This document shows, in pieces, positions 32,399 through 51,028 of a DNA stretch of 64,000 nt; position 1 is the first letter of the stretch, and every line of letters starts with the position of its first letter. Source of the DNA: an uncultured Gemmatimonadales bacterium (GTDB lineage: Bacteria > Gemmatimonadota > Gemmatimonadetes > Gemmatimonadales > GWC2-71-9); the NCBI GenBank assembly GCA_963730185.1, contig CAVSQW010000008.1, forward strand, positions 416,001 through 480,000, written 5' to 3'. Below the pieces are notes generated by a model that was given only the letters and a program-made list of their open reading frames with translations, was not told the DNA's origin and ran no database searches. The position numbers and the translations under genes are program-made.

Positions 32399-32995
32399 AT
32401 GCGAAAGCTTCTCGCCGTCACGGTTGTGACCCTGGTCGGGGTTGGGGCAGCCGTCCTAATGCTGAGCGGCGCGACTGTGGCAGAGCAGCAGACCTCGACG
32501 GCCGTCCCCGACTCGGTGGCGGCGACCAAGCTGACGGTCGCCGACTCGGGCTCGCTCAAGGGGCCGCGCCAGCCGATCTTCTTCCGGCACGACATTCACG
32601 CCGGCCAGTACAAGATCCAGTGCCAGTACTGTCACTACTCGGTCGAGTACACGACCGAGCCGGGCATCCCGTCGATGCAGACCTGCATGGGATGCCATCT
32701 CGCCGTGGGGAGCGCCGACAGCGCCAACCTCACCGAGATCCGGAAGCTCCGGAAGGCATGGACGGCGAAGGAGCCGGTGCAGTGGACCCGGGTGCACACC
32801 CTGGCCAAGCACGTCCACTTCCCGCACATGCGTCACATCAAGGTGCTTGGCCCCAATGCGTGCCAGACCTGCCACGGCGACGTGGCCCGGATGCCGCAGG
32901 TCTTCAAGGTGAACAACATCAACAACATGGGCTTCTGCATCTCGTGTCACCTGGAGCGGAAGGTCAACCGGGACTGCACGGCATGCCATTACTGA
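32399..32995 (+). CDS. actA: Alternative complex III pentaheme cytochrome c
   Basis: N-terminal TM; QPIFFRHDIHAG; five CxxCH motifs (CQYCH, CMGCH, CQTCH, CISCH, CTACH). Confidence 0.88.
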   Translation: MRKLLAVTVVTLVGVGAAVLMLSGATVAEQQTSTAVPDSVAATKLTVADSGSLKGPRQPIFFRHDIHAGQYKIQCQYCHYSVEYTTEPGIPSMQTCMGCHLAVGSADSANLTEIRKLRKAWTAKEPVQWTRVHTLAKHVHFPHMRHIKVLGPNACQTCHGDVARMPQVFKVNNINNMGFCISCHLERKVNRDCTACHY

Positions 32996-33080
32996 CGGTG
33001 ACCGGCGCCGGCGCGACGGACGCGAGCGTCGACCCGCGCCCTCCCCTCACCGACCACGTCACGGAGCAGGGACACCACTC

Positions 33081-36074: not shown

Positions 36075-36077
36075 GCC

Positions 36078-37427
36078 ATGACCGCCATTGCCCAGGATCC
36101 GGCCCGCCCCAATCTGACCCACGCCGAGGTCACCCGGGACGTCGTCGCAACGCTCCAGACCCCGAGCCGCGGCTACTACCTGGCTCTCGCCACCGCGATC
36201 GGGATGCTCCTCGTCGGCGCGGTGACCTTCGTCCTGCTGCTCAAGGACGGCTTGGGGCTCGCCGGCTACAACCCGCCGGTCTTCTGGTCGGTGTACATCA
36301 CCAACTTCGTCTTCTGGGTCGGCATCGGTCACGCCGGCACATTGATCTCGGCGATCCTCTATCTTTTCCGATCGCCCTGGCGAACGGCGGTGTACCGGTC
36401 GACGGAGGCCATGACGGTCTTCGCGGTCATGACGGCCGGCCTCTTCCCGATCATCCACATCGGGCGCCAGTGGATCTTCTACTGGCTGCTGCCCTATCCC
36501 AACCAGCGGTTCCTCTGGCCCAACTTCAAGTCGCCCCTGATCTGGGACGTCTTCGCCATCGGGACCTACCTCACCGTCTCGACCACGTTCCTCTGTGTCG
36601 GGTTGGTGCCCGACATCGCGGCGGTCCGTGACAAGGTCTCTGGATGGCGGCGGAAGCTCTACGGCGCCCTCTCGATCGGCTGGACCGGCGCCGACAGCCA
36701 GTGGCGCCACTATACCCGCGGCTACCTCTACCTGGCCGCGCTGGCCACGCCCCTGGTGCTCTCGGTCCACTCGGTGGTGTCCTGGGATTTCGCCATGGGG
36801 CTCGTGCCCGGCTGGCACGGGACCATCTTCGCGCCCTACTTCGTGGCCGGCGCGATCTACTCGGGCATCGGGATGGTGCTCACCCTGATCATCCCGCTCC
36901 GGAAGGTGCTCAAGATCGAGCACCTCCTGACTGACTACCACTTCGACAATCTGGCCAAGCTGACGCTGCTCACCGGATCGATCTTGTTCTACTCCTACGG
37001 GATGGAATACTTCGTCTCCTGGTACAGCGGGAACACCTTCGAGCAAACCGCCTTCTTCCGCCGGGCGTTCGGTCCGCAGTGGTGGGGCGGCTGGTCGATG
37101 ATCATCTGCAACGCGTTCGTGTCCCAGCTGCTCTGGTTCAAGAAGATCCGGACCAATCTCACGTCGCTCTTCGTGATCTCGATCTTCATCAACATCGGGA
37201 TGTGGTTCGAGCGCTACGTGATCATCACCTCGTCGCTGTCCAACGATTTCGTACCGTACGCCTGGGGTCAGTTGAATCCGACCTGGGCCGACTGGGGCAT
37301 TCTGATCGGGTCGTTCGGGTGGTTCGGGATGTACTTCCTGATGTTCGCCCGGACCTTCCCCGTGGTGGCGATCCAGGAGATCAAGGAGATGATTCCGATG
37401 CCGCGCCGCAGGAAGGGGGCGCACTGA
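36078..37427 (+). CDS. actC: Alternative complex III quinol-oxidising membrane subunit (NrfD-like)
   Basis: NFVFWVGIGHAGTLISAIL, PNFKSPLIWD, LVLSVHSVVSWDFA, PGWHGTIFAPYFVAGAI, GMWFERY. Confidence 0.92.
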   Translation: MTAIAQDPARPNLTHAEVTRDVVATLQTPSRGYYLALATAIGMLLVGAVTFVLLLKDGLGLAGYNPPVFWSVYITNFVFWVGIGHAGTLISAILYLFRSPWRTAVYRSTEAMTVFAVMTAGLFPIIHIGRQWIFYWLLPYPNQRFLWPNFKSPLIWDVFAIGTYLTVSTTFLCVGLVPDIAAVRDKVSGWRRKLYGALSIGWTGADSQWRHYTRGYLYLAALATPLVLSVHSVVSWDFAMGLVPGWHGTIFAPYFVAGAIYSGIGMVLTLIIPLRKVLKIEHLLTDYHFDNLAKLTLLTGSILFYSYGMEYFVSWYSGNTFEQTAFFRRAFGPQWWGGWSMIICNAFVSQLLWFKKIRTNLTSLFVISIFINIGMWFERYVIITSSLSNDFVPYAWGQLNPTWADWGILIGSFGWFGMYFLMFARTFPVVAIQEIKEMIPMPRRRKGAH

Positions 37428-37939
37428 TGGCCAAATCCGAAACCGGCGTGCTCGCGTCCTTCGTCTACGAGGACTCGGCCGTCGAAGCGATCAAGGGACT
37501 CAAGTCCAAGGGGTTCCGCGATCTGACGGTCTACTCGGCCGCGCCGAATCACCATCTCGAGGAGGCGCTCGACCAGCCGATCAGCTGGGTCCGTGCCTTC
37601 ACCCTGGTCGGTGGCCTGACTGGCTGCAGCGCCGGCTTTGGGATGACGATCTGGATGTCCCGCGACTGGCCCCTCTTGGTCGGCGGTAAGGCCATCGCGG
37701 CCATCCCGCCCTACGTGGTGCTCGCCTTCGAGCTCACGATTCTCTATGGTGCCATGTTCACGGTGCTCGGCATCGTCGTCCTCTCGGCACTCAAATCACT
37801 CAGGGGCCGACCCTTCCGGCCGTCCTTCAGCGACGACCAGATCGGAATCTTCGTGCCCTGCCGGCTCGATCAGCGCGCCGACGTTCACCGGTTCCTGGAG
37901 CAGGTGGGCTCGGAGGAGGTGTCGGACCATGGCGCGTAA
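37427..37939 (+). CDS. actD: Alternative complex III subunit D (DUF3341)
   Basis: ATG 37427 overlaps the actC stop; GGLTG, DWPLLVGGK, FELTIL, PSFSDDQ. Confidence 0.82.
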   Translation: MAKSETGVLASFVYEDSAVEAIKGLKSKGFRDLTVYSAAPNHHLEEALDQPISWVRAFTLVGGLTGCSAGFGMTIWMSRDWPLLVGGKAIAAIPPYVVLAFELTILYGAMFTVLGIVVLSALKSLRGRPFRPSFSDDQIGIFVPCRLDQRADVHRFLEQVGSEEVSDHGA

Positions 37940-38525
37940 GCCTTCCCGCTGGCTCGCCGGGCTGGCCTTGCTGTCATTGGCCGGCTGTAACTGGTACTAC
38001 AACACCCTCCCGTCGCCGGACGATCTGATGAAGCTCGTCCCGTGGTTCGACTTCATGGTCACCTCGCCCCGGGTCTCACCCTACCAGAGTGACTCGGTGC
38101 CCCGGAACACGGTGCCGGGCACCGTGCCGATCACCGGGGGCGAGCCGGATTGGGGCACCGGAAACGTGTCGATGCTGGTCTATGCCTTCGACACGCTGGC
38201 GGCCAATGCCCTCACCAACCCGCTGCCGCCGGGTCGCCTGGCCGCTCGGGGAGATACCGTTTTCCATACCTTCTGCTCGGCCTGTCACGGCAACACCGGC
38301 GCCGGTGACGGCTTGGTCGGCAAGCGGATGGGGGCACTGTCGCTCCTCACCGACAAGGCCAAGGCCTACAGCGATGGCTATCTCTACAGCATCATCCGCT
38401 ACGGACGGGGCGTCATGCCGCGGTATGGGGACAAGATCTTCCGCTTCGACGAGCGCTGGGCGGTCGTGAACTACGTCCGCAAGCTGCAGGGGCGCGCGCC
38501 GGCGTCCCAGGGAGCGGCCCAATGA
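37929..38525 (+). CDS. actE: Alternative complex III monoheme cytochrome c lipoprotein
   Basis: ATG 37929; lipobox LAGC; CSACH; GRGVMPRY; ERWAVVNYVRKLQ. Confidence 0.85.
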   Translation: MARKPSRWLAGLALLSLAGCNWYYNTLPSPDDLMKLVPWFDFMVTSPRVSPYQSDSVPRNTVPGTVPITGGEPDWGTGNVSMLVYAFDTLAANALTNPLPPGRLAARGDTVFHTFCSACHGNTGAGDGLVGKRMGALSLLTDKAKAYSDGYLYSIIRYGRGVMPRYGDKIFRFDERWAVVNYVRKLQGRAPASQGAAQ

Positions 38526-39869
38526 GCACCGCCGAACTTCGCCAGCGCCTCATCGCCCGCGGCAACGCCGGGAGCTACAACCTGTTCTTCTCGCTGGGTG
38601 TGGTCCTGGCGGTGGTCGGGGCCGCGCTCTTCGGGTGGGCCCTGATGGGCGGGGAGCATGCCGATCGGGCCTGGCAGCTGTTCCACGTCAATTGGCTCTT
38701 CTTCACCAGTCTCTCGGGCGGCAGTCTCGCGCTCGTGGCGGTCCACAAGCTGGCCAACGCCAAATGGTCCGGGGTGATCATTCGGCTGGCGGCGGCCAAC
38801 CTGTTCTTCACCGTGGTCTCCGTCCTCGGCTTGGTGGCCATCTTCACCGTTGGCTACCAGCCGATCTTCGGACCCATGCACGAGCAGCTCCATACCCTGT
38901 CGCCGGGCAAGGCCCTCTGGCTCAGCCACGGCTTCATGTTCGGTCGGCTGCTGGTCGGCCTGCTGGTGCTCTACGGGATCGGCTGGGCGCTGATCCGGGC
39001 CGACATGGTGCCCGACATGCACCTGGCGCTCGGTTCGGTCGGGGACGACCGGCGGGCTCGGTACGAGCAGCTGACCCGGGGGTTCGACGGCTCGGACGCC
39101 GCCCGGGCGGCGCAACACGCCAAGATCAACCGGCTGGCCGGCTTCTTCATCCCGGTCTACGCGTTGGTTTTCACCATGGTCGCCTTCGACGGCATCATGG
39201 CGCTCCAGCCGCACTGGTACTCGAATCTGCTGGGCGGTTTCTTCTTCATGGGCGCGTTCCTTGGCGCCCACATGCTCCTGGTGCTCCTGATGATCTACGG
39301 GCGCCGCCATCTCGGGATCGCCGATCTGGTGAGCTCCAAGCAGCGCCACGACCTCGGCAAGCTCTGCTTCGGCTTCACGGTCTTCTGGGCCTATCTGATG
39401 TGGTCGCAGTTCCTGGTGATCTGGTACGGGAACATGCCCGAGGAGACCGGCTTCGTCTTCGCGCGGCTCTGGGGGCCATGGATGCCGATCGGCCGGTGGG
39501 TGTTGCTCGGCATGTTCGTCATTCCCTTCTGGGGTCTCTTGTTCGTGGTCGCCAAGAAGACGCCGCTTACTCTGGGACTCTTTGCGACGGTGAGCCTGGT
39601 GTCGCTCTGGATCGAGCGGTACCTCCTGGTGCTGCCGACCGTGACGCCGATGCCGGGCCCGGTGTTCGGTCTGCCCGAGCTGGGACCGACCCTGCTCCTG
39701 GGCGGGCTCTTCCTGGCCTGCTACGCCCTCTTTGCCCGGCGGTATCCGATGATCTCGCCCCAGGCTGGCGGAGATCACCCTGGCGAAGGAAATGAGCCAC
39801 GGCGAAGGCGACCTCGAGCACGAGGAGCGCGCCGGCGACTATGCTCACCCGAAGGAGCTGGAGGCGTGA
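38522..39869 (+). CDS. actF: Alternative complex III subunit F; apparent 1-bp insertion near 39760
   Basis: Multi-TM; FDGIMALQPHWYSNL, HDLGKLCFGF, WAYLMWSQFLVIWYGNMPEET. Removing one C from the C run at about 39760 gives SPRLAEITL...PKELEA-TGA at 39869. Confidence 0.85.
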
Positions 39870-39874
39870 AGGTA

Positions 39875-40045
39875 GTGACTGGTGATTCGTGACTGGTGAC
39901 TAGGGGGTGAGTGGGCGGTAGGGAGTAAGGGGCGGAGGGGGTAGAGGCAACGACCAGGGGGTGGTGAATCGGAAGATCCGACTCACCACCCCCTATTCAC
40001 GACTCCCCACTCCCTCCCTAGTCACGACTCCCCACTCACTAATCT
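39875..40045. repeat. Heptamer-based intergenic inverted-repeat element, copy 3, with central 18-bp hairpin
   Basis: TGACTGG TGATTCG TGACTGG TGACTAG..., then core AGGGGGTGGTGAATCGGA-AGA-TCCGACTCACCACCCCCT (39956-39994, one mismatch), then CGACTCC CCACTCC ... CTAGTCA CGACTCC CCACTCA. Confidence 0.82.
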
Positions 40046-40067: not shown

Positions 40068-41108
40068 TCAGTCGCGCAGATCGATCTGTTGCGCCAAGGC
40101 GTTGAGGGAATCGGCCGGGAAGCTGCCGGTTACGGCCAGGATCCGGAGACCGCGCCTGGTGCCGCCCTTCCCATCGGAGAGGTAATCGGGAGGCGTGAAG
40201 CTCGCCGCGCTGCTGTTGAGGCGACGACCGGCGCCTTTCGCGACCAGCGCCTCGACCCGCTCGAACGGTCCCTCGATGGTTCGAATCACCCCACCGGCCG
40301 GATGCTGTTGCGAGACGACGACGATCGGTCGCTCGTCATCGGACGCGCGTTGGATCTGGACGTCGAGGACCGTCAATCCGTTGACGTACGGTACGTTCCC
40401 GCCGGTGAGCGCCTGAGCCTCCTGCCAGTCGACCGATTGCCAGAGTCCCTCGAACGGGACCGGGGGCTCGTCGTCGGCGGGGCTCAGGGAGGTCACTTGT
40501 ACCGCGACCGGGGTGGCGGTCACTCGGGGATCGCGGGGCGGGGCGGCCGCGAGTTGGACGCCGGGCGCGGCGTCGGCATGGACCACCGGCGGCTGCTGGG
40601 CGGGTGATGCCTGGCCGCGGAGCGCGTTGCTGTCGCTGGCCACCTGGATCGGGGTGACCGCGGTCAAGGTCCGCTCGGCTGGCTGCGCGGGTTCCGTGAC
40701 CGTCTGGGCCGCCATGTCCGTCTGGTCGGCGGCGGCCGAGGCGCGAAGGGCGCCCCGAGCCAGCCAACCGGCCGCGATGGCGCCGATCAAACTCGCCGCG
40801 ACCAGCGTGCCCTGAAGCAATCGGGTCCGGACCTGGCGCCGGTGGACGGCGATGGCCCGGCCCCGAGCGCGGAGTTGCTCCAGCGGCGGTGGCAGAATGA
40901 CCGACCGCGGCGTCGTCTCGGCGAGCAACGCCGTGACCCGGTCGCGAGCGGCAGCCACCTGATCGCGCTCCACGGCGCATCGGTGGCACTCCGCCAAGTG
41001 ACACTCGATCTCCACGCACTGAGAGCGGCTCAGTGCCTGGTCGAGGTACGCGTGGAGTTCGTCCTCAGGAATGTGCCGAGCGTTGTCGGCCGAAATCCAT
41101 CCGGTCAT
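40068..41108 (-). CDS. Zinc-finger (zf-HC2) membrane anti-sigma factor
   Basis: ATG 41108; HIPEDELHAYLD...HLAECHRC (HxxxCxxC); TM LVAASLIGAIAAGWL; directly downstream of an ECF sigma gene. Confidence 0.8.
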   Translation of the reverse strand: MTGWISADNARHIPEDELHAYLDQALSRSQCVEIECHLAECHRCAVERDQVAAARDRVTALLAETTPRSVILPPPLEQLRARGRAIAVHRRQVRTRLLQGTLVAASLIGAIAAGWLARGALRASAAADQTDMAAQTVTEPAQPAERTLTAVTPIQVASDSNALRGQASPAQQPPVVHADAAPGVQLAAAPPRDPRVTATPVAVQVTSLSPADDEPPVPFEGLWQSVDWQEAQALTGGNVPYVNGLTVLDVQIQRASDDERPIVVVSQQHPAGGVIRTIEGPFERVEALVAKGAGRRLNSSAASFTPPDYLSDGKGGTRRGLRILAVTGSFPADSLNALAQQIDLRD

Positions 41109-41580
41109 AAGCCTCAAGAAGTCGCTTGCGAGCCCGCGCCAAGGTGGTCCCGATCGCTCCAACAGCCAGGCCCGTCTGCTCCGCGATTTCGGGGTAGCTG
41201 AGTCCGGCGTCCCACAACAACAACACTTCCTTATCGCGCGCGGAGAGGGTCTCGAGCGCTTCGTTTACCTGCTCGCGGCGCTCCTGATCCTCCACCGCCT
41301 CGTGCGCCCCGGTATTCGGGGTCGAAAGCGGCACCGGGTCGTTGGCGAGCAGCGTCAGATGCTTCTTGCGCCTGACCGCGGCCCTCGCCTCGTCCCGCGC
41401 CAAATTGGCGGCCACGGCGAACACCCAGGCCCGGGGCTTCTCAGGATTATGAGCCATGGCTCGGATGAAGACCTCCTGCGCGAGGTCTTCGGCCCGATCG
41501 GCGTCCCAGACCTTACGGTACAGGAAGCGCACCACAGCGGAATACGTCGATTTGTAGAGGCGCTCCAGCTCGTCGGTCAT
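41065..41580 (-). CDS. ECF RNA polymerase sigma factor
   Basis: RAEDLAQEVF, WVFAVAANLARD, GLSYPEIAEQTG...TTLARARKRL. Confidence 0.9.
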   Translation of the reverse strand: MTDELERLYKSTYSAVVRFLYRKVWDADRAEDLAQEVFIRAMAHNPEKPRAWVFAVAANLARDEARAAVRRKKHLTLLANDPVPLSTPNTGAHEAVEDQERREQVNEALETLSARDKEVLLLWDAGLSYPEIAEQTGLAVGAIGTTLARARKRLLEAYDRMDFGRQRSAHS

Positions 41581-41726
41581 TCGGTTCCTCCGGCGGTCGG
41601 CGTCTCGCAGACAACTGAGGGGACGCGTCTCGGGCGGCCGCCTTGCACATCAACGACTTACGGTCCTGCTTGAGCCGGATTTTCGGTCCCATCGCCGGCC
41701 GACCCGATCTAGCCGTGATTCTGTAA

Positions 41727-42494
41727 TCACTTGTGTTTCTTACGCTTACGCTGAGGGGCAAAGACACAGCCGGGGTGAAGCGTCCCGTCGCCGTCCGGCC
41801 AGTCGAAACAGAGCCCCGGCTTGGCCGACCGGCCGTCGGCCCGGACCCGGTTGTGAAGGACACACGAGATGCCGTCTCCGCCGAGATAGCTGCATGCGGA
41901 GATCATCTCCACGCCGATCGAGTCCTCCTCCTCGCGCTCGACCTTGCAGAGGTAGGGTGACTGGCGCGACCGGAGCAGTGCCTCCAGCCGATGGTGGGTC
42001 GGCCCGCACATGATCTCCAGCTGGAGGTCGCGGCAGCAGGCGGCCCCACGGCGATGGTTGGCCGTGGTGCAGGGGGCGTCGGCGCACGGGTTTGCCCCGT
42101 CGAACACCGGGAGGCCCCGCTTGGGGGGCGGCTTCGGGGCCAGCGCCCGCTCGACCTCACGGCCGCGCTCGACCACCACGAACGTGCCGGCCTCGTAGCG
42201 GGCGGCGGGCCGGTGCCTTGGCGGGGGCAGGCGGGCCTCGAATCCATGGGCCCGGCAGCGGGACCGGCCGTCGGGCCCGCCCTCGAGGTGCTTGCAGCGA
42301 ACCTGGAGCCGCGCCGTGGTGTAGAGGTGGTCTCCCTCGCGCCACAGCTTCCCGAACGCGATGTGCTCGGTATGCCCGCGGAGCCAGGTGGCTTCGTCGT
42401 CGGCGGAAGCCGGGCCATCGTCGAGCTCGGCCACCCGGAGGGTGACCGCGAGCCGGTGGCACTGGGCCCCCATCCGGGTACAGGGCGGAATCAT
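41727..42494 (-). CDS. Cysteine-rich putative metal-binding protein (YkgJ/CxxCxxCC-like)
   Basis: Cys clusters: CKHL..CRAH, CADAPC..ACCRD, CSYL..CVLH..KPGLCFDWP, HPGC. Confidence 0.55.
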   Translation of the reverse strand: MIPPCTRMGAQCHRLAVTLRVAELDDGPASADDEATWLRGHTEHIAFGKLWREGDHLYTTARLQVRCKHLEGGPDGRSRCRAHGFEARLPPPRHRPAARYEAGTFVVVERGREVERALAPKPPPKRGLPVFDGANPCADAPCTTANHRRGAACCRDLQLEIMCGPTHHRLEALLRSRQSPYLCKVEREEEDSIGVEMISACSYLGGDGISCVLHNRVRADGRSAKPGLCFDWPDGDGTLHPGCVFAPQRKRKKHK

Positions 42495-42539
42495 GGCGGA
42501 AAGCTAGGCACTAGAGGATTGGATGGGAGGGTCCTATAT

Positions 42540-42557
42540 TTGTGAACCTTTTCACAA
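42540..42557. promoter_or_regulatory. Perfect Rex-type operator (also fits CRP TGTGA-N6-TCACA) upstream of the blue-copper gene
   Basis: TTGTGAA-CCTT-TTCACAA in an AT-rich patch between divergent genes. Confidence 0.72.
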
Positions 42558-42651
42558 GAGCTTGCGCGCCCCGGGACCCTGGCGCGCTACGATGGACATA
42601 CCGGGTTCGACTCGATCGATTGGAACCACCTTCTGGGAGGCTGAGGTAGCG

Positions 42652-43125
42652 ATGCGACAGATGCGATTGATGGCGGGGGCGGCGGCCCTGATGCTGGCCG
42701 CGTGCGGTGGTGGGGAGAAGGCTCAGCCGGCGGCCGAGCCGGCGGCCGCCGAGCCTGCGGCGGCGCCGGCGGCGGCTGCGGGTGCGGTTCACGACGTAAA
42801 CCTGGTGCTGGAGGGGACCACCTACAAGTTCGTCCCCAACGATTTCACCATCAAGCCGGGCGACAAGGTGGTCTTCCACAACGTGAGCGGCGGCCCGCAC
42901 AACGTGCAGTTCTGGGCCGACAGCATTCCGGCCGGTTCCGCCGAGGCCCTCGACGCGGCGATGCCGGGCGACAAGCTCGGTCCGCTCAATGGGCCGCTCC
43001 TCACCGAGCCGAACGAGACCTACGCGGTCACCTTCCCGGCCACCCTGCCGAACGGGGAGTACCATTTCACGTGCACGCCCCACATGGCGATGGGGATGCA
43101 CGGGAAGCTGACGATCGCTCCGTGA
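42652..43125 (+). CDS. Plastocyanin-like blue copper lipoprotein
   Basis: Lipobox LAAC; Ala/Pro/Glu linker; KFVPNDFTIKPGDKVVF; GGPHNV and CTPHMAMGM give the type-1 Cu ligands H/C/H/M. Confidence 0.88.
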   Translation: MRQMRLMAGAAALMLAACGGGEKAQPAAEPAAAEPAAAPAAAAGAVHDVNLVLEGTTYKFVPNDFTIKPGDKVVFHNVSGGPHNVQFWADSIPAGSAEALDAAMPGDKLGPLNGPLLTEPNETYAVTFPATLPNGEYHFTCTPHMAMGMHGKLTIAP

Positions 43126-43185: not shown

Positions 43186-43249
43186 GAGGGTCGCGACGGC
43201 CCGGGCCAGCCGGGCATCCTCTCGGTACCCATACCTCACGGGAGCCTTG

Positions 43250-44400
43250 ATGCGCCTCGTCCTGATCGGCCTGATGGCCGCGGCCGCGTTGCCTGGACCG
43301 CTCTGGTCCCAGACCCCGGTCCCCCTCAAACCATCCGCAAAGCTCACCCATGAATTCAGCTCCATCACCGGCCTGCGGGAGCTCGCCGACGGGCGGGTCG
43401 AGGTTTCGGACGGGATCGACGGCGTTCTGATCCGGGCCGACTTCGCGACCCAGACGCTGGATACGATTGGGCGGAGTGGCGAGGGGCCCGGGGAGTACCG
43501 GAGCCCGGACGCGCTGTTCGCCCTTCCCAATGGTGCCACCTTGCTGGTCGACCTGGGGAACGCGCGGCTGTCGATCTTCGATGCCGCCGGGAAGTACCGA
43601 GAGTCGACCCCGATCATGGAGGGCCGTCCCGGTGGACCGGGTGGCCTCACCCTGATCATCCCGTCCGCCACCGATCGGATGGGGCGGATCTACTTCCAGC
43701 CCGGGGTCAGCCGGGCGCCGACTCGGGCGCGGTGCTTCGCTGGAACCGCTCCACCGGGAAAAAGGACACCGTGGCCACGATCCGACTGCCGACGGTGATC
43801 ACCTCGAGCTCCGGCGGGCCCAATGCCCGCTCCGTGAATCAGCGTCCGCCGCCCTATCCGTTGCAGGATGGATGGGCGGTGGCGCCCGACGGGCGGGTGG
43901 CCCTCGTCCGGGCGCCCGCGTACCGGGTTGATTGGGTGGATCCGGCTGGCCGACTGCACCGTGGGCCGCCGCTCACGGCCGAGCCGGTCCGGATCGGGAA
44001 GGCGGAGAAGAAGGAGTACCTCGAGGATCTGGCGGCCAGCGGTGTTCGGGTTCAGGCCGAGGATCGGAATGGCCGGATGTCGATCAGCATGTCGCGGGGT
44101 GGAGGGAATCCTGACGAGGATCCGTTCAGCGCGGACGAGTGGCCCGATAGCAAGCCGCCCTTCGTGTCGGGAGGCATCCGGGTCGGGCCCGACGGCTTGG
44201 TGTGGGTCGAGCGGTCGGTGGCCGCCGGTGCCCCCGACCTCTACGACGTGATCGGCGCGGACGGCGGACTGGTCCGCCGGGTCACGCTGCCGGCCGGCTA
44301 CCGGATCGTGGCCGTCGGCGCCCGAGGAGTGTACGCCCGCCGGATGGACGACAACGGGATCAGCTGGCTGGAGCGGTTCGATCGACCCGGGTCGAAATGA
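43250..44400 (+). CDS. Exported beta-propeller (6-bladed/NHL-like) protein; frameshift near 43710
   Basis: Signal peptide; FSSITGLRELADGR, IGRSGEGPGEYRSP, VDLGNARL; continues in ORF 43732..44400 (WAVAPDGRV, PDSKPPF, GPDGLVWVERS, YDVIGADG). Confidence 0.65.
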
Positions 44401-45208
44401 CCATCGCCACGGCCGCCACGCCGAGGCCGGCGATGGCGTCGACGCCGTAGTGCATCTGGCAATACACCACACCCACGGTCAGCAGCAGGGCGGGGAGCGC
44501 GAGCAGCGCTCCCCAGCCCGGCGCCTCTCGAGCCGTCGCCGCGACGGCGGCCCAGGTGCCAGCCACGTGTGACGACGGAAAGGCCGCGCCGAACGAGCTG
44601 CCCCCCGACAGCACTCCGTACACCAGCCGGGCTGGGAGATTGGCCGTGAACCAGGCCGCCGGCCGGGGGAACACGTAGTACGGCCCCGCGACCGGGAAGA
44701 AGATGAACCAGAGGTAGCAGATCACGAACGCGGTCATGATCGTGAACACGGACCGTCGGGCGGAAGCCTGGTCGTGCCGGAGGAGGAACAGCGCAATCGG
44801 GAAGGGGACGATCACGTAGTAGCCGAAGTAGGCCGCGTGGCCGATCGCCGAGGCCAGCCGGCTCGGGGCGAGCTGCCACCAGCGGTGGCTTACCTGCATC
44901 CCGAAGAGTGCCTGCTCGGCTCCCTGCATGATCGCGTCGTGGGTGGGACGGCTCCCGAATCCGTTGATCACGTCGAGCGCGCCATAGAGGGCCAACAGCA
45001 GCACGATCGGCGCGACGGTCCGGGCGGTCCGGCCGAAGCGGCCGAGGTCGGGCGCTTGGAACGAGAGCAAGAGCACCAGCAGGAGCAGGTGACCCAGCGC
45101 GACCCACCAGATCGCGGGATTCTCCCCGGCCCTGACGATCGACACCGCGATCACCACGCCGGCGTAGCCGGCCAGGAGCCATTCGGTGGGTCGGGGCTTC
45201 AGAGCCAG
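44360..45208 (-). CDS. PAP2-superfamily membrane protein, Aur1/IPC-synthase-like (start approximate)
   Basis: Several TM helices; AYFGYY, FFPVAGP, GAAFPSSHVA (C2 His), VYCQMHYGVDAIAG (C3 His/Asp); no clear C1 K-x6-RP motif. Confidence 0.75.
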   Translation of the reverse strand: MALKPRPTEWLLAGYAGVVIAVSIVRAGENPAIWWVALGHLLLLVLLLSFQAPDLGRFGRTARTVAPIVLLLALYGALDVINGFGSRPTHDAIMQGAEQALFGMQVSHRWWQLAPSRLASAIGHAAYFGYYVIVPFPIALFLLRHDQASARRSVFTIMTAFVICYLWFIFFPVAGPYYVFPRPAAWFTANLPARLVYGVLSGGSSFGAAFPSSHVAGTWAAVAATAREAPGWGALLALPALLLTVGVVYCQMHYGVDAIAGLGVAAVAMVISTRVDRTAPAS

Positions 45209-46164
45209 CCCCGGGCCCGATACCAGGCGAGCGTCTCCTCCGCGCCCCGCGCGAGGTCGTGGGTGGCGACCCAGCCGGTGGCCTCGGTGAGGGGGGCGGG
45301 GTCGCAGGTCCACGCCGGCTGGAAGAACTCGTTCGCCTTGTCGTAGTTGAGGACGGTAGCCCGCCCCAGGAGACGGGCGGTCGTGTCGGTCACCCGCAGG
45401 GCCGCCCGCCCGACGAGCTCGGGCAGGCCGACGACCCGCACCCGGCGGCCGGCCGCCCGACCGACGGTCTCCACCAACGAGCGGCTGGTGACGATCTCGG
45501 GGTGGGCGGGATAGTAGACCCGACCCCGGGTGGCGTCACTCTGGCCTGCGCTGACCAGGGCGGCGGCCAGGTCGGGTCCGTAGACGAGGCTCAGCCGCTG
45601 GGAGCCGTCGCCGAACACGGGGGCGAACCCGAAGGCCGCCGCTTTGAAGACCCGGAGCATCTCCTTGTCGCCCGGCCCGTAGACCACCGGCGGCCGGACG
45701 ATCGTCCAGGCCAGTCCGGACTCGCGCACCACGTCCTCGCCGGCCAGCTTGCTCCGGCCGTATCCGGTGACGGGGTTCGGGGGCTCCGGACCGCGGAGCG
45801 GCGTGTCGCTGGCGGGCCCGCCGGCCGCCAGTGAGGAGACGAACAGCAGCCTCGCGACACCGGCGGCCTCGGCGGCCTGAACCAGGCGCCGGGTGCCCTC
45901 GCGGTTCACTTCGAGGAGCTCGGCCTCGCTCCGCGCCGCGATGAGGCCGGCAACGTGGAAGACCAGGTCCTGCCGCGCGGCGGCCCGGTCGAGGGCCGGC
46001 AGATCGAGCAGATCGCCGACCACCAGCTCCACGCCACGCTCCGCCAGCGAACGGGCTTTCTCGGTGGACCGGACCAGGGCGGTGACGTGGAGGCCCCGGG
46101 CCAGCAGGACATCGATCAGGTGGCCACCGACGAACCCCGTCCCGCCGGTGACGAGCACCCTCAT
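45199..46164 (-). CDS. NAD-dependent epimerase/reductase (SDR), candidate ceramide reductase CerR
   Basis: ATG 46164; VLVTGGTGFVG, VSSLAA, YGRSK (YxxxK), RPPVVYGPGD; translationally coupled in the spt operon. The CerR role is inferred from context. Confidence 0.75.
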   Translation of the reverse strand: MRVLVTGGTGFVGGHLIDVLLARGLHVTALVRSTEKARSLAERGVELVVGDLLDLPALDRAAARQDLVFHVAGLIAARSEAELLEVNREGTRRLVQAAEAAGVARLLFVSSLAAGGPASDTPLRGPEPPNPVTGYGRSKLAGEDVVRESGLAWTIVRPPVVYGPGDKEMLRVFKAAAFGFAPVFGDGSQRLSLVYGPDLAAALVSAGQSDATRGRVYYPAHPEIVTSRSLVETVGRAAGRRVRVVGLPELVGRAALRVTDTTARLLGRATVLNYDKANEFFQPAWTCDPAPLTEATGWVATHDLARGAEETLAWYRARGWL

Positions 46165-47294
46165 GCGGAGCGCTCGTACATCCGGTAGGTCTTGTAGGGG
46201 TGGAAGCCCATCTTGATCAGGCCGGCGTTCATGGCGGAGTTGTCTTCCAGGATCCACCCGGCCTCGCCCCAGGTCATCCCGAGCTTCCCCGCCTTGGTCC
46301 AGATCCAGTGGTAGAGCATCGCGTCGATTCCCTTACCGCGGTGCTCGGGCAGCACGCCCAGCAAGAGGATCCGGGCGCGGGTCATCCGGCGGGTCTTGAG
46401 GGCCCAGAGCAGCTTCAGCGCGGACGGGAACATCCGGCCCTGGCGATTGGTCTTGAGGACCTCGTTGAAGTCGGGCAGGGTGAGCCCGAACCCGACCGGC
46501 TGGCCGTCGATCTCGGCGAAGGGCACCAGCTCGGGGACCACGACCGGGCGGAACTGCTGCGCGAGATGCTCGATCTCGTGATCGGTCATCGGGATCGCAC
46601 CCCAGTTGTTCTCCCAGCAACGGTTATAGAGATCCTTGACCCGCTCCACCTCGGCGGTGAAGTCCCGGAGCCGGATGGCACGGAGGGTCACCCGGTAGCG
46701 GCGCTGGCCGATCTCCACCGCCCGGCTGATGCGCTCGGGCGGGATCACGTAATGGTCGGGAGCACCCCCTTCGTAGGCGATCAGGTCCTTGACGCCCGTG
46801 AGCCCCGCCTGTTCCAGCAGGGGCGGGTAGTAGGCCGGGTTGTGGGGCATCATGATGGTGTTGGGGCGGTCGAAGCCCTGGACCAGGAGGCCGCACTCGT
46901 CGTTCACCGAGAAGGACGCCGGCCCCCGGATCGTGGTGAACCCCCGCTCGCGGCACCAGGCAGCGGCCGTATCGAGCAGGGCCTGGGGCACCTCGGGGTC
47001 GTCGATCGACTCGAGGAAGCCGAAGAACCCGACCCGATCGTCGTGGGTCTCGTTGTGGAGGCGATTGGCGATGGCCGCGATTCGCCCCACCACCCGGCCA
47101 TCCCGCCAGGCGAGGAAGTAGTCTGCTTCGGCGTGCTCGAAGAAGGGGTTCTTGGCTCGGTTCAGGAGGAGCTTCACGTCTCGACGCAACGGCGGGACCC
47201 AATTCGGGTCCCGCGCGTGCAATCGGAACGGCAGATCGATGAAGCGGCCGAGGTCGCCCGAGGTCGGACCGGGCGGAACGGAAACCGAGGTCAG
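46161..47294 (-). CDS. GNAT-fold acyltransferase, candidate bacterial ceramide synthase bCerS (start approximate)
   Basis: RFIDLPFRLHARDPNWVPPL, NPFFEHA, VVGRIAA, GFFGFLESID, GLLVQGFD, MPHNPAYY, LLGVLPEHRGKGID, WILEDN, YKTYRMY; directly downstream of the spt-like gene. Confidence 0.72.
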   Translation of the reverse strand: MTSVSVPPGPTSGDLGRFIDLPFRLHARDPNWVPPLRRDVKLLLNRAKNPFFEHAEADYFLAWRDGRVVGRIAAIANRLHNETHDDRVGFFGFLESIDDPEVPQALLDTAAAWCRERGFTTIRGPASFSVNDECGLLVQGFDRPNTIMMPHNPAYYPPLLEQAGLTGVKDLIAYEGGAPDHYVIPPERISRAVEIGQRRYRVTLRAIRLRDFTAEVERVKDLYNRCWENNWGAIPMTDHEIEHLAQQFRPVVVPELVPFAEIDGQPVGFGLTLPDFNEVLKTNRQGRMFPSALKLLWALKTRRMTRARILLLGVLPEHRGKGIDAMLYHWIWTKAGKLGMTWGEAGWILEDNSAMNAGLIKMGFHPYKTYRMYERSA

Positions 47295-48502
47295 ATGACG
47301 CCCAGCTCGCGGCCGATCCGCCCCACCGTCTCGAGGCAATAGTCGATCTGGTCCGCCGTGTGGGTGGCCATGACGCTGGTTCGAAGCCGGCACTGGGAGG
47401 GCGCCACCGCCGGCGGGACCACCGGGTTGGTGAACACCCCGGCGTCGAAGACCTTCCGCCACATGACCAGCGTCTTGTCGAGCGGACCGATCAGGATCGG
47501 AACGATCGGCGTCTCGGACGGTCCGGTCTCGAAGCCCAGGTTCCGGAATCCTTCGGCCAGCCGGCGGGTATTGACCCAGAGCTGCTTCGCGCCGCTCGGG
47601 CTCGGTCTGGATCACTTCGACCGCCGCGAGCACCCCGGCCGTGTTGGCCGGGTGGCAGGGCGGCGGTAAAGATCAGGGGACGACTGTGGTGGCGGAGGTA
47701 GTTGATCACCTGGCGCGACGCCGCGACGAAGCCGCCGATCGAGGCCAGCGACTTGGAGAACGTGCCGGCGACGATGTCGACCTCGTCGGTCAGTCCGAAG
47801 TGAGCGGCGGTGCCGTCGCCGTTCGGACCGAGGACGCCGATCGAGTGCGCGTCGTCGACCGCGAGGGCGGCGCCGTAGCGGCGGCAGACCTTGAGCAGGC
47901 CGGGCAGGTCGGCGATGTCGCCTTCCATGGAATACACGCCGTCGACGATGACCATCCGGCCGCCCGGCTCGGCGCACTGGGCGAGCTTCCGCTCCAGCCC
48001 GGCGAGGTCACCGTGATTGAACCGGACGGTGTTCCCATAGCTCATCTTGGCGCCGTCGACGATCGAGGCGTGGTCGAGCTTGTCGAGGAACACGACATCG
48101 CCCTTGGACACCAGGCCGGAGATCAGACCCAGATTGGCGTTGTAGCCGGTCGAGAAGACGATGCAGTCCTCCTTGCCGAGGAACGCGGGCGAGCGCCTCT
48201 TCGAGCTGGAGGTGCAGGTCGAGGGTGCCGTTCAGGAACCGGCTCCCAGTGCAGCCCGAGCCGTAGATGTGCAGGGCCCGGGTCGCGGCCTCGAGGACCT
48301 TGGGGTGGTGGGTCAGGCCGAGGTAGTTGTTCGACCCCAGCATGATCCGCTTCTGTCCTTCGATCACCACCACCGTATCTTCGGACTCGGAGATCGGCTT
48401 GAAATAGGGGTAGAGCCCCTGCGCCTTGACCTCGTCGGCCCGGGTGTACCTGCGGCACTTCTCGAACAACGAGATGTCGGTATTGATCGTCGGCGTCGAC
48501 AC
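47291..48502 (-). CDS. spt: PLP-dependent alpha-oxoamine synthase, serine palmitoyltransferase-like; frameshifted
   Basis: [76 protein letters not shown] (PLP Lys); ends GRELGVI-TGA at 47291. Confidence 0.75.
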
Positions 48503-48727
48503 GGAGCCCCAAAGGTGGAAGGGTAGCCAAAATGCTACTCGATCCCATTGCGGAATAACAGGTTAAGCTAACGGCCCCTAGCTCGTGACACAAGTATGTG
48601 ACGTTCCAGAGTGCGGCGCCTTGCACTCCCTCCGGCCGGGCCGCCGGGGTCAGGGGGCGGTCCCGATATTATTGTTATTCCGTCGGATAACGCGCCGGCT
48701 CGAGGCCGGCCCTTACGGTGTGGAGCG

Positions 48728-51028
48728 ATGCAGCGACAGCTTCTGATCCTGGGGTTGACCATCCTGGCTGGCCTTGCAGGGCCCTTGGTCCCGGCGGCGC
48801 GGGCCCAGACGGTCCAGCCAGGGCGGTTCGAGGTCCCGGGGCTCGACTGGGGGCCGAACGCGGCTTGGCGCCGGCAGGCACGGCAGGTCAGGGCCACCCG
48901 ACAGGCCATGCTCAAGGCCGGACGATTCGGTCTGCTCAACGCCCCGCCCCTGTTCGCCCTCGCGGCACCCGGGGGGGCGAACGGCACCGCGGTGACGGGG
49001 GTCTTCAACGTCCCGGTCATTCCTTTCGCGTACTCCGACGTCCCCGCGCCCTATAGCAAGCAGGAGTTCCAGGACGTCCTCTTCCAGACAGCACCGCCGT
49101 ATGGTCGCCCCTACACGCTCAAGACGTACTACGAGGAGCTGTCGCACGGACTGATCCAGATGTTCGGCACGGTGTTCGATCCGGTGCGGACCGACAGCAC
49201 GGCCGAGTATTACCAGCAGAACTGCAACGGGCTCAACCTGCCGGGTCGGACGGCCTGTCCCGACAACGGCAAGCGCTTCGGCAACATGCTGATCGCCGCC
49301 CTGGATTCGATCACCAATCGGCCCGGCGGCGACACGGTCTGGGCTGAGTTCGACAACGACGGCCCCGACCACCAACCGAACTCGGGTGACGACGACGGGG
49401 TCGTCGACTTCGTGACTTTTCTGCAGCCGACGGTCGACGGCGCTTGTGGCACCCCAGGCATTTGGGCCCATCGGTGGGTGATCTCGGTCTGGAACGGCGG
49501 GTCGCCGTACGTGACCAAGACTCCTTGGGCGGGGCACCCGGGACAGTTCATCAAGGTGGAGAACTACACCATCCAGAGCGAGGTCGGTGGAGCGAGCGGC
49601 TGCGACCACCCTCAGGGAATGACGGCTCCGATCATGCCGATCGGCACCATCGCTCACGAGACCGGCCACGCCTTCGGCCTCCCCGACCTCTACGACACCC
49701 AGACCGGCACCGAGGGGATCGGAGAGTGGGGAATCATGGGAAGCGGCAACTACGCCAAGGCATTCAGCCCAGCCCAGTACGATCCCTGGTCGATGAGCCA
49801 GCTGGGATGGATCACCGTGGCGCCGCTGACCCAGACCTCGGTGATCACCACCGGGCCGCGCCAGCTGACCGACACGGTGTTCATGGCGCAGAGCCCCAGC
49901 CCTGACGAGTACGTCCTGATCGAGAACCGGCAGGCAGTCCACTCCGACTCGGCGATGTTCGATCCCAACAACACGGCGTCGCCGACCGGGACGCCCCCCT
50001 GCAAGTCCAAGTGCCGGAAGGTGCCGGGACTCCTGATCTGGCACATCGACGACGGCCGGATCCTCCAGGGGCAGGGGTCCAACACCATCAACACCGGTCC
50101 GATCCAAGGGGTCGAGGTGGAACAGGCCGACGGCCTCAACAATCTGCGGAGCACGAGCTCCACGACCCGGAACCGGGGCGATGCCGGGGATACGTGGCCC
50201 GGCGACTCGAGCCGGGTGGTGTACGGGTTCCGCACCAACCCCGCCGCCAAGACCCACTACAGTGAGTACGACGGCTTCGTGATCGATCAGATCGCGGACC
50301 TGGGCGGCGGGGTGATGCGGTTCCGTTACCTCCAGCGGGGCCTGACCGTGGTGCGATCGAACACGCTGGGCGCCCTGATTCGCTTCGACGGGGCGCCCTG
50401 GGCCACGTACTCGGACGCCCTGCCGGAGGGAACGGCGTTTACGGTCGGGGTCGACAGCGTTCAGGAGACGGTGCCGGGTGTGAGCCGAGCCGCGTTCCTG
50501 AACTGGAGCAACGGCGGGCCGCGGGAGCAGGCGCTCACCAGCGGGCCGGTCCCCGACACCCTGGTGGCGAGCTTCGCGGTCGAGCATCGCCTCAAGGTGA
50601 CGGAAACGGGTGGCGGGCTCGGGACGGTGACGGCCAGCGTCAACGGCGACTTCGGGGCCGGGGTGTTCCTCCCGGCGGGGACGCCGGTTACCCTCACGGC
50701 CGCGCCGAGCGGGAGCGACGTCTTCGCGGGCTGGCGGGGCGACACGACGTCGATCGCGACCGAGATCACCTTGCCCATGAACCGGGCCTACACGCTCGAG
50801 GCGTCGTTCGTCGCCTTCGTGGACGTCACCTTGTCCGACGCCACCGACGACATCCTCGGCACCCCCAAGCTCTCGGCGGCGCAGAAGACCTTCCTCGACG
50901 GGCTGGGGAATCGGAACGGATCGTACGACGTCGGCGACTATCTGGCCCTCCTCAAGCGGAACGGGCAGGCGGTCCCGGAGGCCGTGGTGCGGGCACTGAA
51001 GGCGGCCCCGGCCGGAAAGGGCCAGTGA
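48728..51028 (+). CDS. Secreted M6 family (immune inhibitor A-like) metalloprotease
   Basis: Signal ending ARA-Q; YYEELSHG, FDNDGPD..DDDGVVD, HETGHAFGLPDLYD (HExxH), WGIMGSG, LIENRQ, GLLIWHID, VEQADG. Confidence 0.88.
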   Translation: MQRQLLILGLTILAGLAGPLVPAARAQTVQPGRFEVPGLDWGPNAAWRRQARQVRATRQAMLKAGRFGLLNAPPLFALAAPGGANGTAVTGVFNVPVIPFAYSDVPAPYSKQEFQDVLFQTAPPYGRPYTLKTYYEELSHGLIQMFGTVFDPVRTDSTAEYYQQNCNGLNLPGRTACPDNGKRFGNMLIAALDSITNRPGGDTVWAEFDNDGPDHQPNSGDDDGVVDFVTFLQPTVDGACGTPGIWAHRWVISVWNGGSPYVTKTPWAGHPGQFIKVENYTIQSEVGGASGCDHPQGMTAPIMPIGTIAHETGHAFGLPDLYDTQTGTEGIGEWGIMGSGNYAKAFSPAQYDPWSMSQLGWITVAPLTQTSVITTGPRQLTDTVFMAQSPSPDEYVLIENRQAVHSDSAMFDPNNTASPTGTPPCKSKCRKVPGLLIWHIDDGRILQGQGSNTINTGPIQGVEVEQADGLNNLRSTSSTTRNRGDAGDTWPGDSSRVVYGFRTNPAAKTHYSEYDGFVIDQIADLGGGVMRFRYLQRGLTVVRSNTLGALIRFDGAPWATYSDALPEGTAFTVGVDSVQETVPGVSRAAFLNWSNGGPREQALTSGPVPDTLVASFAVEHRLKVTETGGGLGTVTASVNGDFGAGVFLPAGTPVTLTAAPSGSDVFAGWRGDTTSIATEITLPMNRAYTLEASFVAFVDVTLSDATDDILGTPKLSAAQKTFLDGLGNRNGSYDVGDYLALLKRNGQAVPEAVVRALKAAPAGKGQ

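Follow-up and report, generated by a model that had tools for sequence, protein, structure and literature searches.

The window analysed here is a stretch of 64,000 nucleotides from an uncultured Gemmatimonadales bacterium (GenBank assembly GCA_963730185.1, 17 contigs, 82% complete; contig CAVSQW010000008.1, positions 416,001 to 480,000). On its minus strand, from 48502 down to 44360, four translationally coupled genes encode in order a serine palmitoyltransferase (Spt), a GNAT protein of the bacterial ceramide synthase (bCerS) type, a short-chain dehydrogenase/reductase (SDR) of the CerR type and a membrane protein of the PAP2_3 family. This operon would build a ceramide and cap it with a phospho-head group. 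Its features are the following:

47291..48502, minus strand: spt, serine palmitoyltransferase; 402 residues in relatives; pyridoxal phosphate lysine of GTFSKS at 47754-47752.
46161..47294, minus strand: bCerS-type GNAT N-acyltransferase; about 377 residues; probable CTG start, which overlaps the stop of spt.
45199..46164, minus strand: CerR-type extended SDR; 321 residues; YGRSK at 45762-45748.
44360..45202, minus strand: Aur1-fold PAP2_3 membrane protein, candidate ceramide phosphotransferase; about 280 residues, 8 predicted helices.
44569-44567, 44452-44450 and 44440-44438, minus strand: codons of the predicted PAP2 catalytic triad H212, H251 and D255.

An earlier sequence-only reading of the window had described four abutting or overlapping minus-strand genes. 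All four are present, as is every motif quoted for them (GLYPYF, in the frame starting at 48502, GTFSKS, FIDLP..DPNWVPPL, YGRSK and FPSSH...HYGVD), and the encoded proteins carry the Pfam domains Aminotran_1_2, Acetyltransf_1, Epimerase/3Beta_HSD and PAP2_3 (PF14378, E 4e-15), respectively. The overlapping arrangement is borne out at all three junctions, each of which is a 4-base start/stop overlap: CTGA at 47294-47291, ATGA at 46164-46161 and CTGA at 45202-45199. On this basis the start of the PAP2 gene is probably at about 45202 rather than at the GTG at 45313; the open reading frame finder's starts at 45313 and 47633 were discarded. In a survey of 100 related loci, the frame of the gene following spt fits an NTGA overlap in 82 of 83 loci, the four bases being CTGA in 79, which suggests that a non-canonical CTG start is conserved and serves translational coupling at this junction. 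A promoter and terminator scan of 44000-48800 gave no signal beyond that of shuffled sequences, and none of the sequencing runs listed as holding the sequence was an RNA run.

Three single-base insertions, at about 48184, 47648 and 47586, break the open frame of spt into four pieces. Near-identical soil contigs lack the first insertion in three of four runs (X1-X3) and the second and third in one (X1), each run contributing a single low-depth contig. The gene is a single open frame in all 20 relative loci hand-picked from 33 GNAT-positive genomes, and in 78 of the 79 related loci of full length the protein is matched without interruption. The insertions are thus probably assembly errors. It is possible to regard spt instead as a real pseudogene, the pathway being dead in the source strain though used by its relatives, and the density of the lesions speaks for this: three frameshifts fall within 600 bases of spt, whereas the other genes tested show 3 changes over about 29 kb. 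Nevertheless, a pseudogene is very improbable. All three lesions are +1 insertions, and no internal stops are found once the insertion columns are ignored. Differences from relatives concentrate at third codon positions (131-156, as opposed to 16-25 at second positions), and one soil contig without the first insertion differs elsewhere at just one of 245 bases. The remaining three operon genes are intact, and three of 31 other genes tested in the same assembly are frameshifted as well. Judged from their sequences, these three encode pyruvate dehydrogenase E1-beta, pyruvate dehydrogenase E2 and a thioredoxin-reductase-like protein.

The identity of the first enzyme can be read from its intact orthologues. 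The orthologue at locus L031, 91% identical to the source Spt, scores 518 bits on the NCBIfam model NF047600 (SerpalmtaseCFB), above BioF (392) and a Kbl-like model (386). NF047600 is the best model for all five intact orthologues (502-526 bits; BioF 387-394). The best match of an intact orthologue in the PDB is the Sphingobacterium-type serine palmitoyltransferase (8GUH/3A2B, 420 bits), followed by an entry at 303; Kbl reaches at most 273, the cysteate-C-fatty acyltransferase 28EH 235 and BioF at most 231. In a tree of 18 rows, with long branches flagged, the operon proteins group with the Spt of E. coli BL21 and apart from BioF and Kbl (support 96/92). The same genome has a separate BioF orthologue on contig C7 and a Kbl on contig C17. 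A BioF or Kbl identity was ruled out on the model scores, the PDB scores, the tree and these separate genes; by profiles, PDB scores and tree, the protein is closer to characterised serine palmitoyltransferases than to BioF, Kbl, 5-aminolevulinate synthase or the cysteate acyltransferase.

An oxoamine synthase of this kind could in principle use another amino acid or acyl donor (cysteate, alanine, glycine), giving a sulfonolipid, a 1-deoxy lipid or another ceramide-like lipid, with the PAP2 protein acting on a different substrate. The scores of 502-526 bits lie under the NF047600 cut-off of 640, and the Spt-like clade is broad in its substrate range (PMC11334938; here and below, papers are cited from the accessible parts of their text). 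Such a substrate is nonetheless very improbable, as the serine palmitoyltransferase structures outscore 28EH by 420 bits to 235 and a head-group transferase requires a 1-hydroxyl group. The 1-hydroxyl for head-group transfer is supplied only by serine.

The GNAT protein is 35% identical to YghO of E. coli BL21 over 381 columns, that is, over its full length (E 8e-77), and is the sole YghO homologue in the source genome. A PDB search found no solved structure similar to it by sequence. YghO is presumably a bCerS, and the SDR of the BL21 aasR-cerR-acp-spt operon presumably CerR, as gene order indicates (PMC11324152). The full-length homology to YghO, together with the linkage to spt, identifies the GNAT protein as a bCerS-type enzyme. 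The operon SDR shares 30% identity with the BL21 operon's SDR in an alignment of 306 columns (E 3e-35). It is the top match of that protein in the genome (97 bits; next 49), and it is also the top genome match for three Bacteroidota SDRs. The identity to CerR-type proteins of about 30% includes the C-terminal part, and no curated CerR model matched; among the three assignments, that of CerR is the weakest. The sequence-only reading had named the three proteins as Spt, a bCerS homologue and a ceramide reductase. The first two assignments withstood the comparisons by which they might have failed, a grouping with BioF or Kbl and a lack of bCerS homology, and the third stands as CerR-like, by homology to the BL21 operon SDR and the top genome match.

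Known Spt/bCerS/CerR pathways are those of Caulobacter (CCNA_01220/01212/01222), B. fragilis (BF9343_4218/4240) and E. coli BL21 (ECD_RS14845/yghO/ECD_RS14835). All three enzymes have homologues in the window, each being the best or only genome match of the BL21 query. On these sequence comparisons, the operon would very probably build a ceramide backbone. In the groups covered by PMC11324152, cerS is always found in a separate operon from aasR/cerR/acpR/spt. The window operon, in contrast, holds cerS within it, has no aasR or acpR and carries a head-group gene at its end; its Spt is of the Bacteroidota (Cytophaga-Flavobacterium-Bacteroides, CFB) type. Clustering of head-group genes with ceramide genes, as seen here, is known from Caulobacter CC_1152-1161 (ceramide phosphoglycerate), where six genes take part (PMC11324152), whereas a single PAP2-fold transferase is proposed here.

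One Gemmatimonadota genome has a proteobacterial-type aasR-cerR-acp-spt operon and a separate cerS (L337, G143:C35:15000-28000). Its genes are 42-51% similar to E. coli BL21 or window genes, and the operon was possibly acquired laterally.

The PAP2 gene is associated with the ceramide genes. Of the close-homologue records, 79 of 80 carry Gemmatimonadota names (Gemmatimonadales) and one carries a Bacillota name. The PAP2 gene follows the SDR gene directly in 18 of the 20 hand-picked relative loci. Of 581 genome loci, the best 80 were surveyed for synteny, 24 of these being too short and dropped; in all 56 with room (at least 3.6 kb upstream), spt, GNAT and SDR genes precede PAP2, the operon order being kept. 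As the order spt-bCerS-cerR-PAP2 is conserved over several families, the linkage goes beyond chance. Among 121 genomes of the phylum (20 candidates scored per genome, kin not independent), the PAP2 clade is found in 64 and bCerS in 76, and all 64 are within the 76; none of the 45 bCerS-negative genomes has it. Within family f2, the three PAP2-positive genomes are all among the five bCerS-positive of 28 (P 0.003, kin again not independent). A distant sister clade shows a looser association: of its 80 metagenome loci, 51 also hold bCerS, 27 spt and 14 the SDR. The layouts are divergent, tandem or reshuffled, and many of the contigs do not reach 3 kb. Plasmids were searched with a distant clade member, which gave no match.

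The association is not exclusive. Twelve bCerS-positive genomes are without the PAP2 clade, and in three positives (G111, G141 and G140) the PAP2 gene is located away from bCerS. In G037, G080 and G124, which have no such PAP2, the ceramide genes have glycosyltransferase genes at their flanks instead, and this fits a replaceable head-group slot.

Several variants of the arrangement occur among relatives. In L216, L217 and L218 (G034, G032 and G030) the operon has shrunk to spt-SDR-PAP2 with loss of the GNAT gene, only a distant bCerS-like gene being present elsewhere in the genome. Extra PAP2 clade members adjoin flippase-like, glycosyltransferase or SDR genes: in L207-L210, L212, L213, L219, L220, L231, L242 and L243 such paralogues are coupled to LPG_synthase_TM flippase-like or GT4 genes, or stand between two SDRs, and are possibly further head-group variants. 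Large proteins in which an acyl-AMP-ligase-like part is fused to an Spt-like domain at the C-terminus adjoin PAP2 clade members and bCerS (L226:4-3546 and L322:1321-4662; also L284, L289, L299, L302 and L314).

The PAP2 protein combines the catalytic residues of its superfamily with the absence of phosphatase signatures. His212, His251 and Asp255 are invariant in 137 of 137 aligned homologues. The phosphatase C1 motif K-x6-RP occurs in none of 121 clade members and the R-x5-H-x3-D pattern in one, the C3 arginine column being occupied by T, A, V or S; all three control PAP2 phosphatases, drawn from these genomes, carry C1 as well as the C3 arginine. The lack of C1 K-x6-RP and of the C3 arginine is a mark of the transferases in the Aur1/Ipt1-like family. 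A profile of the 121 sequences finds Aur1, the catalytic subunit of the S. cerevisiae inositol phosphoceramide (IPC) synthase, first in the PDB over positions 12-279, weakly (E 5e-7; LpxE 4e-6); searches with a single sequence or a narrow profile did not find Aur1 there. The predicted structure (pLDDT 96.8) gives the same order. Foldseek places Aur1 9VJ4 best (TM score 0.69; LpxE 0.44), and VIA-align gives Aur1 9IVC a Z score of 17.4 over 253 residues (root mean square deviation 4.1), followed by LpxE with 15.0 over 162. By profile and by structure alike, Aur1 is thus the best match, extending over almost the full length of the protein. Its H255, H294 and D298 align with H212, H251 and D255, and an FPxAPP-like motif stands in place of C1; Aur1 H157, F158 and H293, which are auxiliary or aureobasidin-contact residues, are not clearly retained.

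PF14378, the triad, the full transmembrane fold and the missing C1 and C3 arginine together place the protein with the Aur1/Ipt1-like enzymes, and the canonical PAP2 lipid phosphatase class (PgpB, LpxE and LPP, with C1 K-x6-RP, C2 PSGH and C3 R-x5-H-x3-D) was rejected. The residue before the catalytic histidine, a head-group predictor in trypanosome enzymes, was dropped since it varies (M, F, A) across the clade. The Aur1-like identity that the sequence-only reading had given this protein is upheld by the residue counts and by the profile and structure matches.

A different role for the same fold should be considered. The first three genes might make ceramide while the PAP2 protein acts as a phosphatase of lipids or a phospholipase-C-like hydrolase that recycles or trims a phosphorylated sphingolipid or phospholipid. 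The same His-His-Asp chemistry operates in LpxE, PgpB and G6PC1 (PMC13133130), enzymes of the SMS family show phospholipase C activity in the absence of ceramide, LpxE ranks second in the fold search, and 60 of the 121 homologues weakly match an undecaprenyl-diphosphate phosphatase model. Yet the phosphatase motifs carried by the control enzymes are missing throughout the clade, and Aur1 can be aligned over 253 residues as compared to 162 for LpxE, which makes a hydrolase quite unlikely. The fourth gene is, as judged from its fold, motifs and linkage, likely to encode a ceramide phosphotransferase, whatever its head group.

By combining these assignments, it is possible to propose a pathway. 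Dihydroceramide is the predicted product of Spt, the bCerS-type acyltransferase and the CerR-type reductase. The Aur1-fold PAP2 protein would then transfer to it a phospho-head group, phosphoinositol being the likeliest, with a glycerophospholipid as the donor. Aur1 uses its His-His-Asp triad in a two-step phospho-histidine mechanism (PMC13133130). By analogy, His251, activated by Asp255, would attack the donor lipid and diacylglycerol would leave; His212 would subsequently activate the 1-hydroxyl of ceramide, which would receive the head group. Judging by the arginine-rich loops, the active site may face the periplasm.

The proposal that the head group is phosphoinositol, and the operon product therefore an inositol phosphosphingolipid, is given a probability of about 0.45. 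The source genome has a phosphatidylinositol phosphate (PIP)-synthase-like gene (PIPS) directly upstream of the gene for myo-inositol phosphate synthase (MIPS) on contig C15:437049-439094 (L061:6049-8094). Three bCerS-positive genomes are without MIPS: G074, G124 and G064. In G074 (99% complete, 30 contigs) and G124, spt-GNAT-SDR and psd are kept, and PAP2, MIPS and PIPS are missing together. G064 is the only PAP2-positive, MIPS-negative genome, and its PIPS gene is cut by a contig end. This comparison of joint losses is a small sample.

The closest tested functional analogue is BT_1522 of Bacteroides thetaiotaomicron, a phosphoinositol dihydroceramide synthase of the Aur1 type, by which dihydroceramide is capped in a bacterium (PMC9246714, PMC8791184). 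Its deletion abolishes nearly all IPC and leaves phosphoethanolamine dihydroceramide (PE-DHC) in place (PMC9246714, PMC8791184); the residual IPC is under 1%, and a BLAST search with the fly enzyme did not find the ethanolamine phosphoceramide (EPC) synthase (PMC8791184). BT_1522 adjoins PIPS and MIPS, whereas the window PAP2 clade adjoins ceramide genes. Membership of the BT_1522 family was excluded, as the cut-off of its model NF052609 is missed and linkage to PIPS or MIPS is lacking.

A number of observations weigh against the phosphoinositol proposal or one of its steps. MIPS is present in 113 of the 121 phylum genomes and is so nearly universal that its presence says little for inositol. 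Ten of 73 bCerS- and MIPS-positive genomes are without PAP2, G137 being a clean loss with MIPS kept and G123 a contig end. PIPS or MIPS adjoins PAP2 in none of 160 loci (0 of 80 in the clade and 0 of 80 in the sister clade), and the PIP-synthase-like gene reaches 160 bits on NF045883, under the cut-off of 170. The presence of pssA, psd and pgsA means that synthesis of phosphatidylethanolamine (PE), phosphatidylserine (PS) and phosphatidylglycerol (PG) is encoded as well. The window PAP2 shows no NF052609 match at E 0.01 (cut-off 480 bits), and 50 of the 121 homologues match that model weakly (best E 3e-9). Identity to Aur1 is only 17-18%, and the root mean square deviation is above 4 Å, and some genomes carry further members of the PAP2 clade away from ceramide genes. 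As to the ceramide enzymes, all five intact Spt orthologues miss the NF047600 cut-off, the model having been built for the CFB group, and the SDR shares no more than about 30% identity with CerR-type proteins. Finally, the nearest named clade member outside the phylum occurs in B. fragilis, a species without inositol lipids (PMC9246714).

This out-of-phylum branch is best seen in Bacteroides finegoldii, where the gene for the PAP2 protein WP_237923849.1 overlaps a cerR-like SDR gene; the linkage rests on one record. The protein nests within the window clade, scoring 172 bits on the clade's profile (HH probability 99.9%), where Aur1 reaches 32 and C1-type phosphatases 25, and does not belong to the BT_1522 family. 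It shares with the window PAP2 the motifs PVAGP, AFPSSHV and Q-x-HY as well as the overlap with a cerR-like gene. It differs in having no spt or bCerS within the surrounding 16 kb and a 25-residue insertion before C2, and the two are 31% identical over a 125-residue stretch. Its orthologues are named B. fragilis and B. thetaiotaomicron, both records being partial. No PAP2 gene stands beside a Parabacteroides cerR-like gene or an Aureispira spt-bCerS-cerR-like cluster.

These relatives bring in a second candidate donor. The same operon and phospho-histidine chemistry might use PE (or PS or PG) and yield ethanolamine phosphoceramide or another non-inositol phosphosphingolipid. B. fragilis makes PE-ceramide and no inositol lipids, and deletion of BT_1522 spares PE-DHC (PMC9246714, PMC8791184); for these reasons the B. 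fragilis clade member, at least, is unlikely to be an IPC synthase. Both pssA and psd are present in the source genome, and close trypanosome paralogues vary in their IPC, EPC and sphingomyelin specificity (PMC11796370). On the other hand, G074 and G124 keep psd, yet have lost PAP2 along with PIPS and MIPS, and the activity of the Bacteroides protein is itself putative, at low identity to the window PAP2. A PE donor is held to be rather less likely but is the main rival reading, inositol being placed slightly ahead of ethanolamine as the head group.

The sequence-only reading had seen in the window a complete one-operon route with a eukaryote-style phosphotransferase. The ceramide and PAP2 genes do stand together, but the genes for the donor phospholipids lie elsewhere (PIPS and MIPS on C15, pssA-psd and pgsA). 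Likewise, the Aur1-like fold and motifs are supported, but a transferase of this type is already known in bacteria from BT_1522 (PMC9246714, PMC8791184). The remark that the lineage has no characterised sphingolipids agrees with a literature search that found no report of Spt or sphingolipids in Gemmatimonadota, although the 40 predicted producer phyla of a Black Sea paper, as far as its accessible text goes, may include them. The same search, which left most subscription papers outside, found neither a single coupled spt-bCerS-cerR-transferase operon nor a function for the window PAP2 branch.

The chemistry and the enzyme types are already known. The PAP2 branch, as its sequences group, is separate from the BT_1522 family, uncharacterised, and found from Gemmatimonadota to gut Bacteroides. 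A bolder combined proposal is tentative: the branch would be a third one of bacterial ceramide phosphotransferases, linked with ceramide genes all the way from Gemmatimonadota to Bacteroidota, with the Bacteroides member an EPC synthase and the soil Gemmatimonadota large unrecognised producers of phosphosphingolipids. If so, the Bacteroides member would make ethanolamine phosphoceramide, which in gut Bacteroides is the sphingolipid of highest abundance. The EPC synthase is left unassigned in the accessible text of PMC8791184, and the literature search found no later assignment; the cerR-adjacent Bacteroides PAP2 is a named candidate for it. Of the 121 Gemmatimonadota genomes sampled, 64, or roughly half, are predicted to make phosphosphingolipids, which bears on the question of which organisms make the ceramides seen in soil lipidomes, and phosphatidylinositol is predicted from MIPS (113 of 121) to be a near-universal lipid of the phylum. 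The four genes form a cassette suited to direct expression.

The source genome has a second membrane-lipid cluster at C7:433000-443100 (L062:1878-12082), with two CDP-alcohol phosphotransferases, a class III aminotransferase, a Gfo/Idh-type dehydrogenase, a flippase-like protein, a GT4 glycosyltransferase and a HAD hydrolase. This cluster could be the source of an unusual donor lipid.

In the window, a convergent gene (43247-44400, plus strand) lies downstream of the operon; it is frameshifted near 43750, continuous in relatives such as L032, and present in some relatives only. The conserved neighbours at 40068-43125 and 48611-51028 encode an extracytoplasmic function (ECF) sigma factor with a zf-HC2 anti-sigma factor, a cysteine-rich hypothetical protein, a plastocyanin-like cupredoxin and a divergent M6 metallopeptidase, and no link to lipid synthesis was seen for them. 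Further away, at 32399-39889 on the plus strand, is a six-gene respiratory cluster that, judged from N-terminal sequences, resembles alternative complex III.

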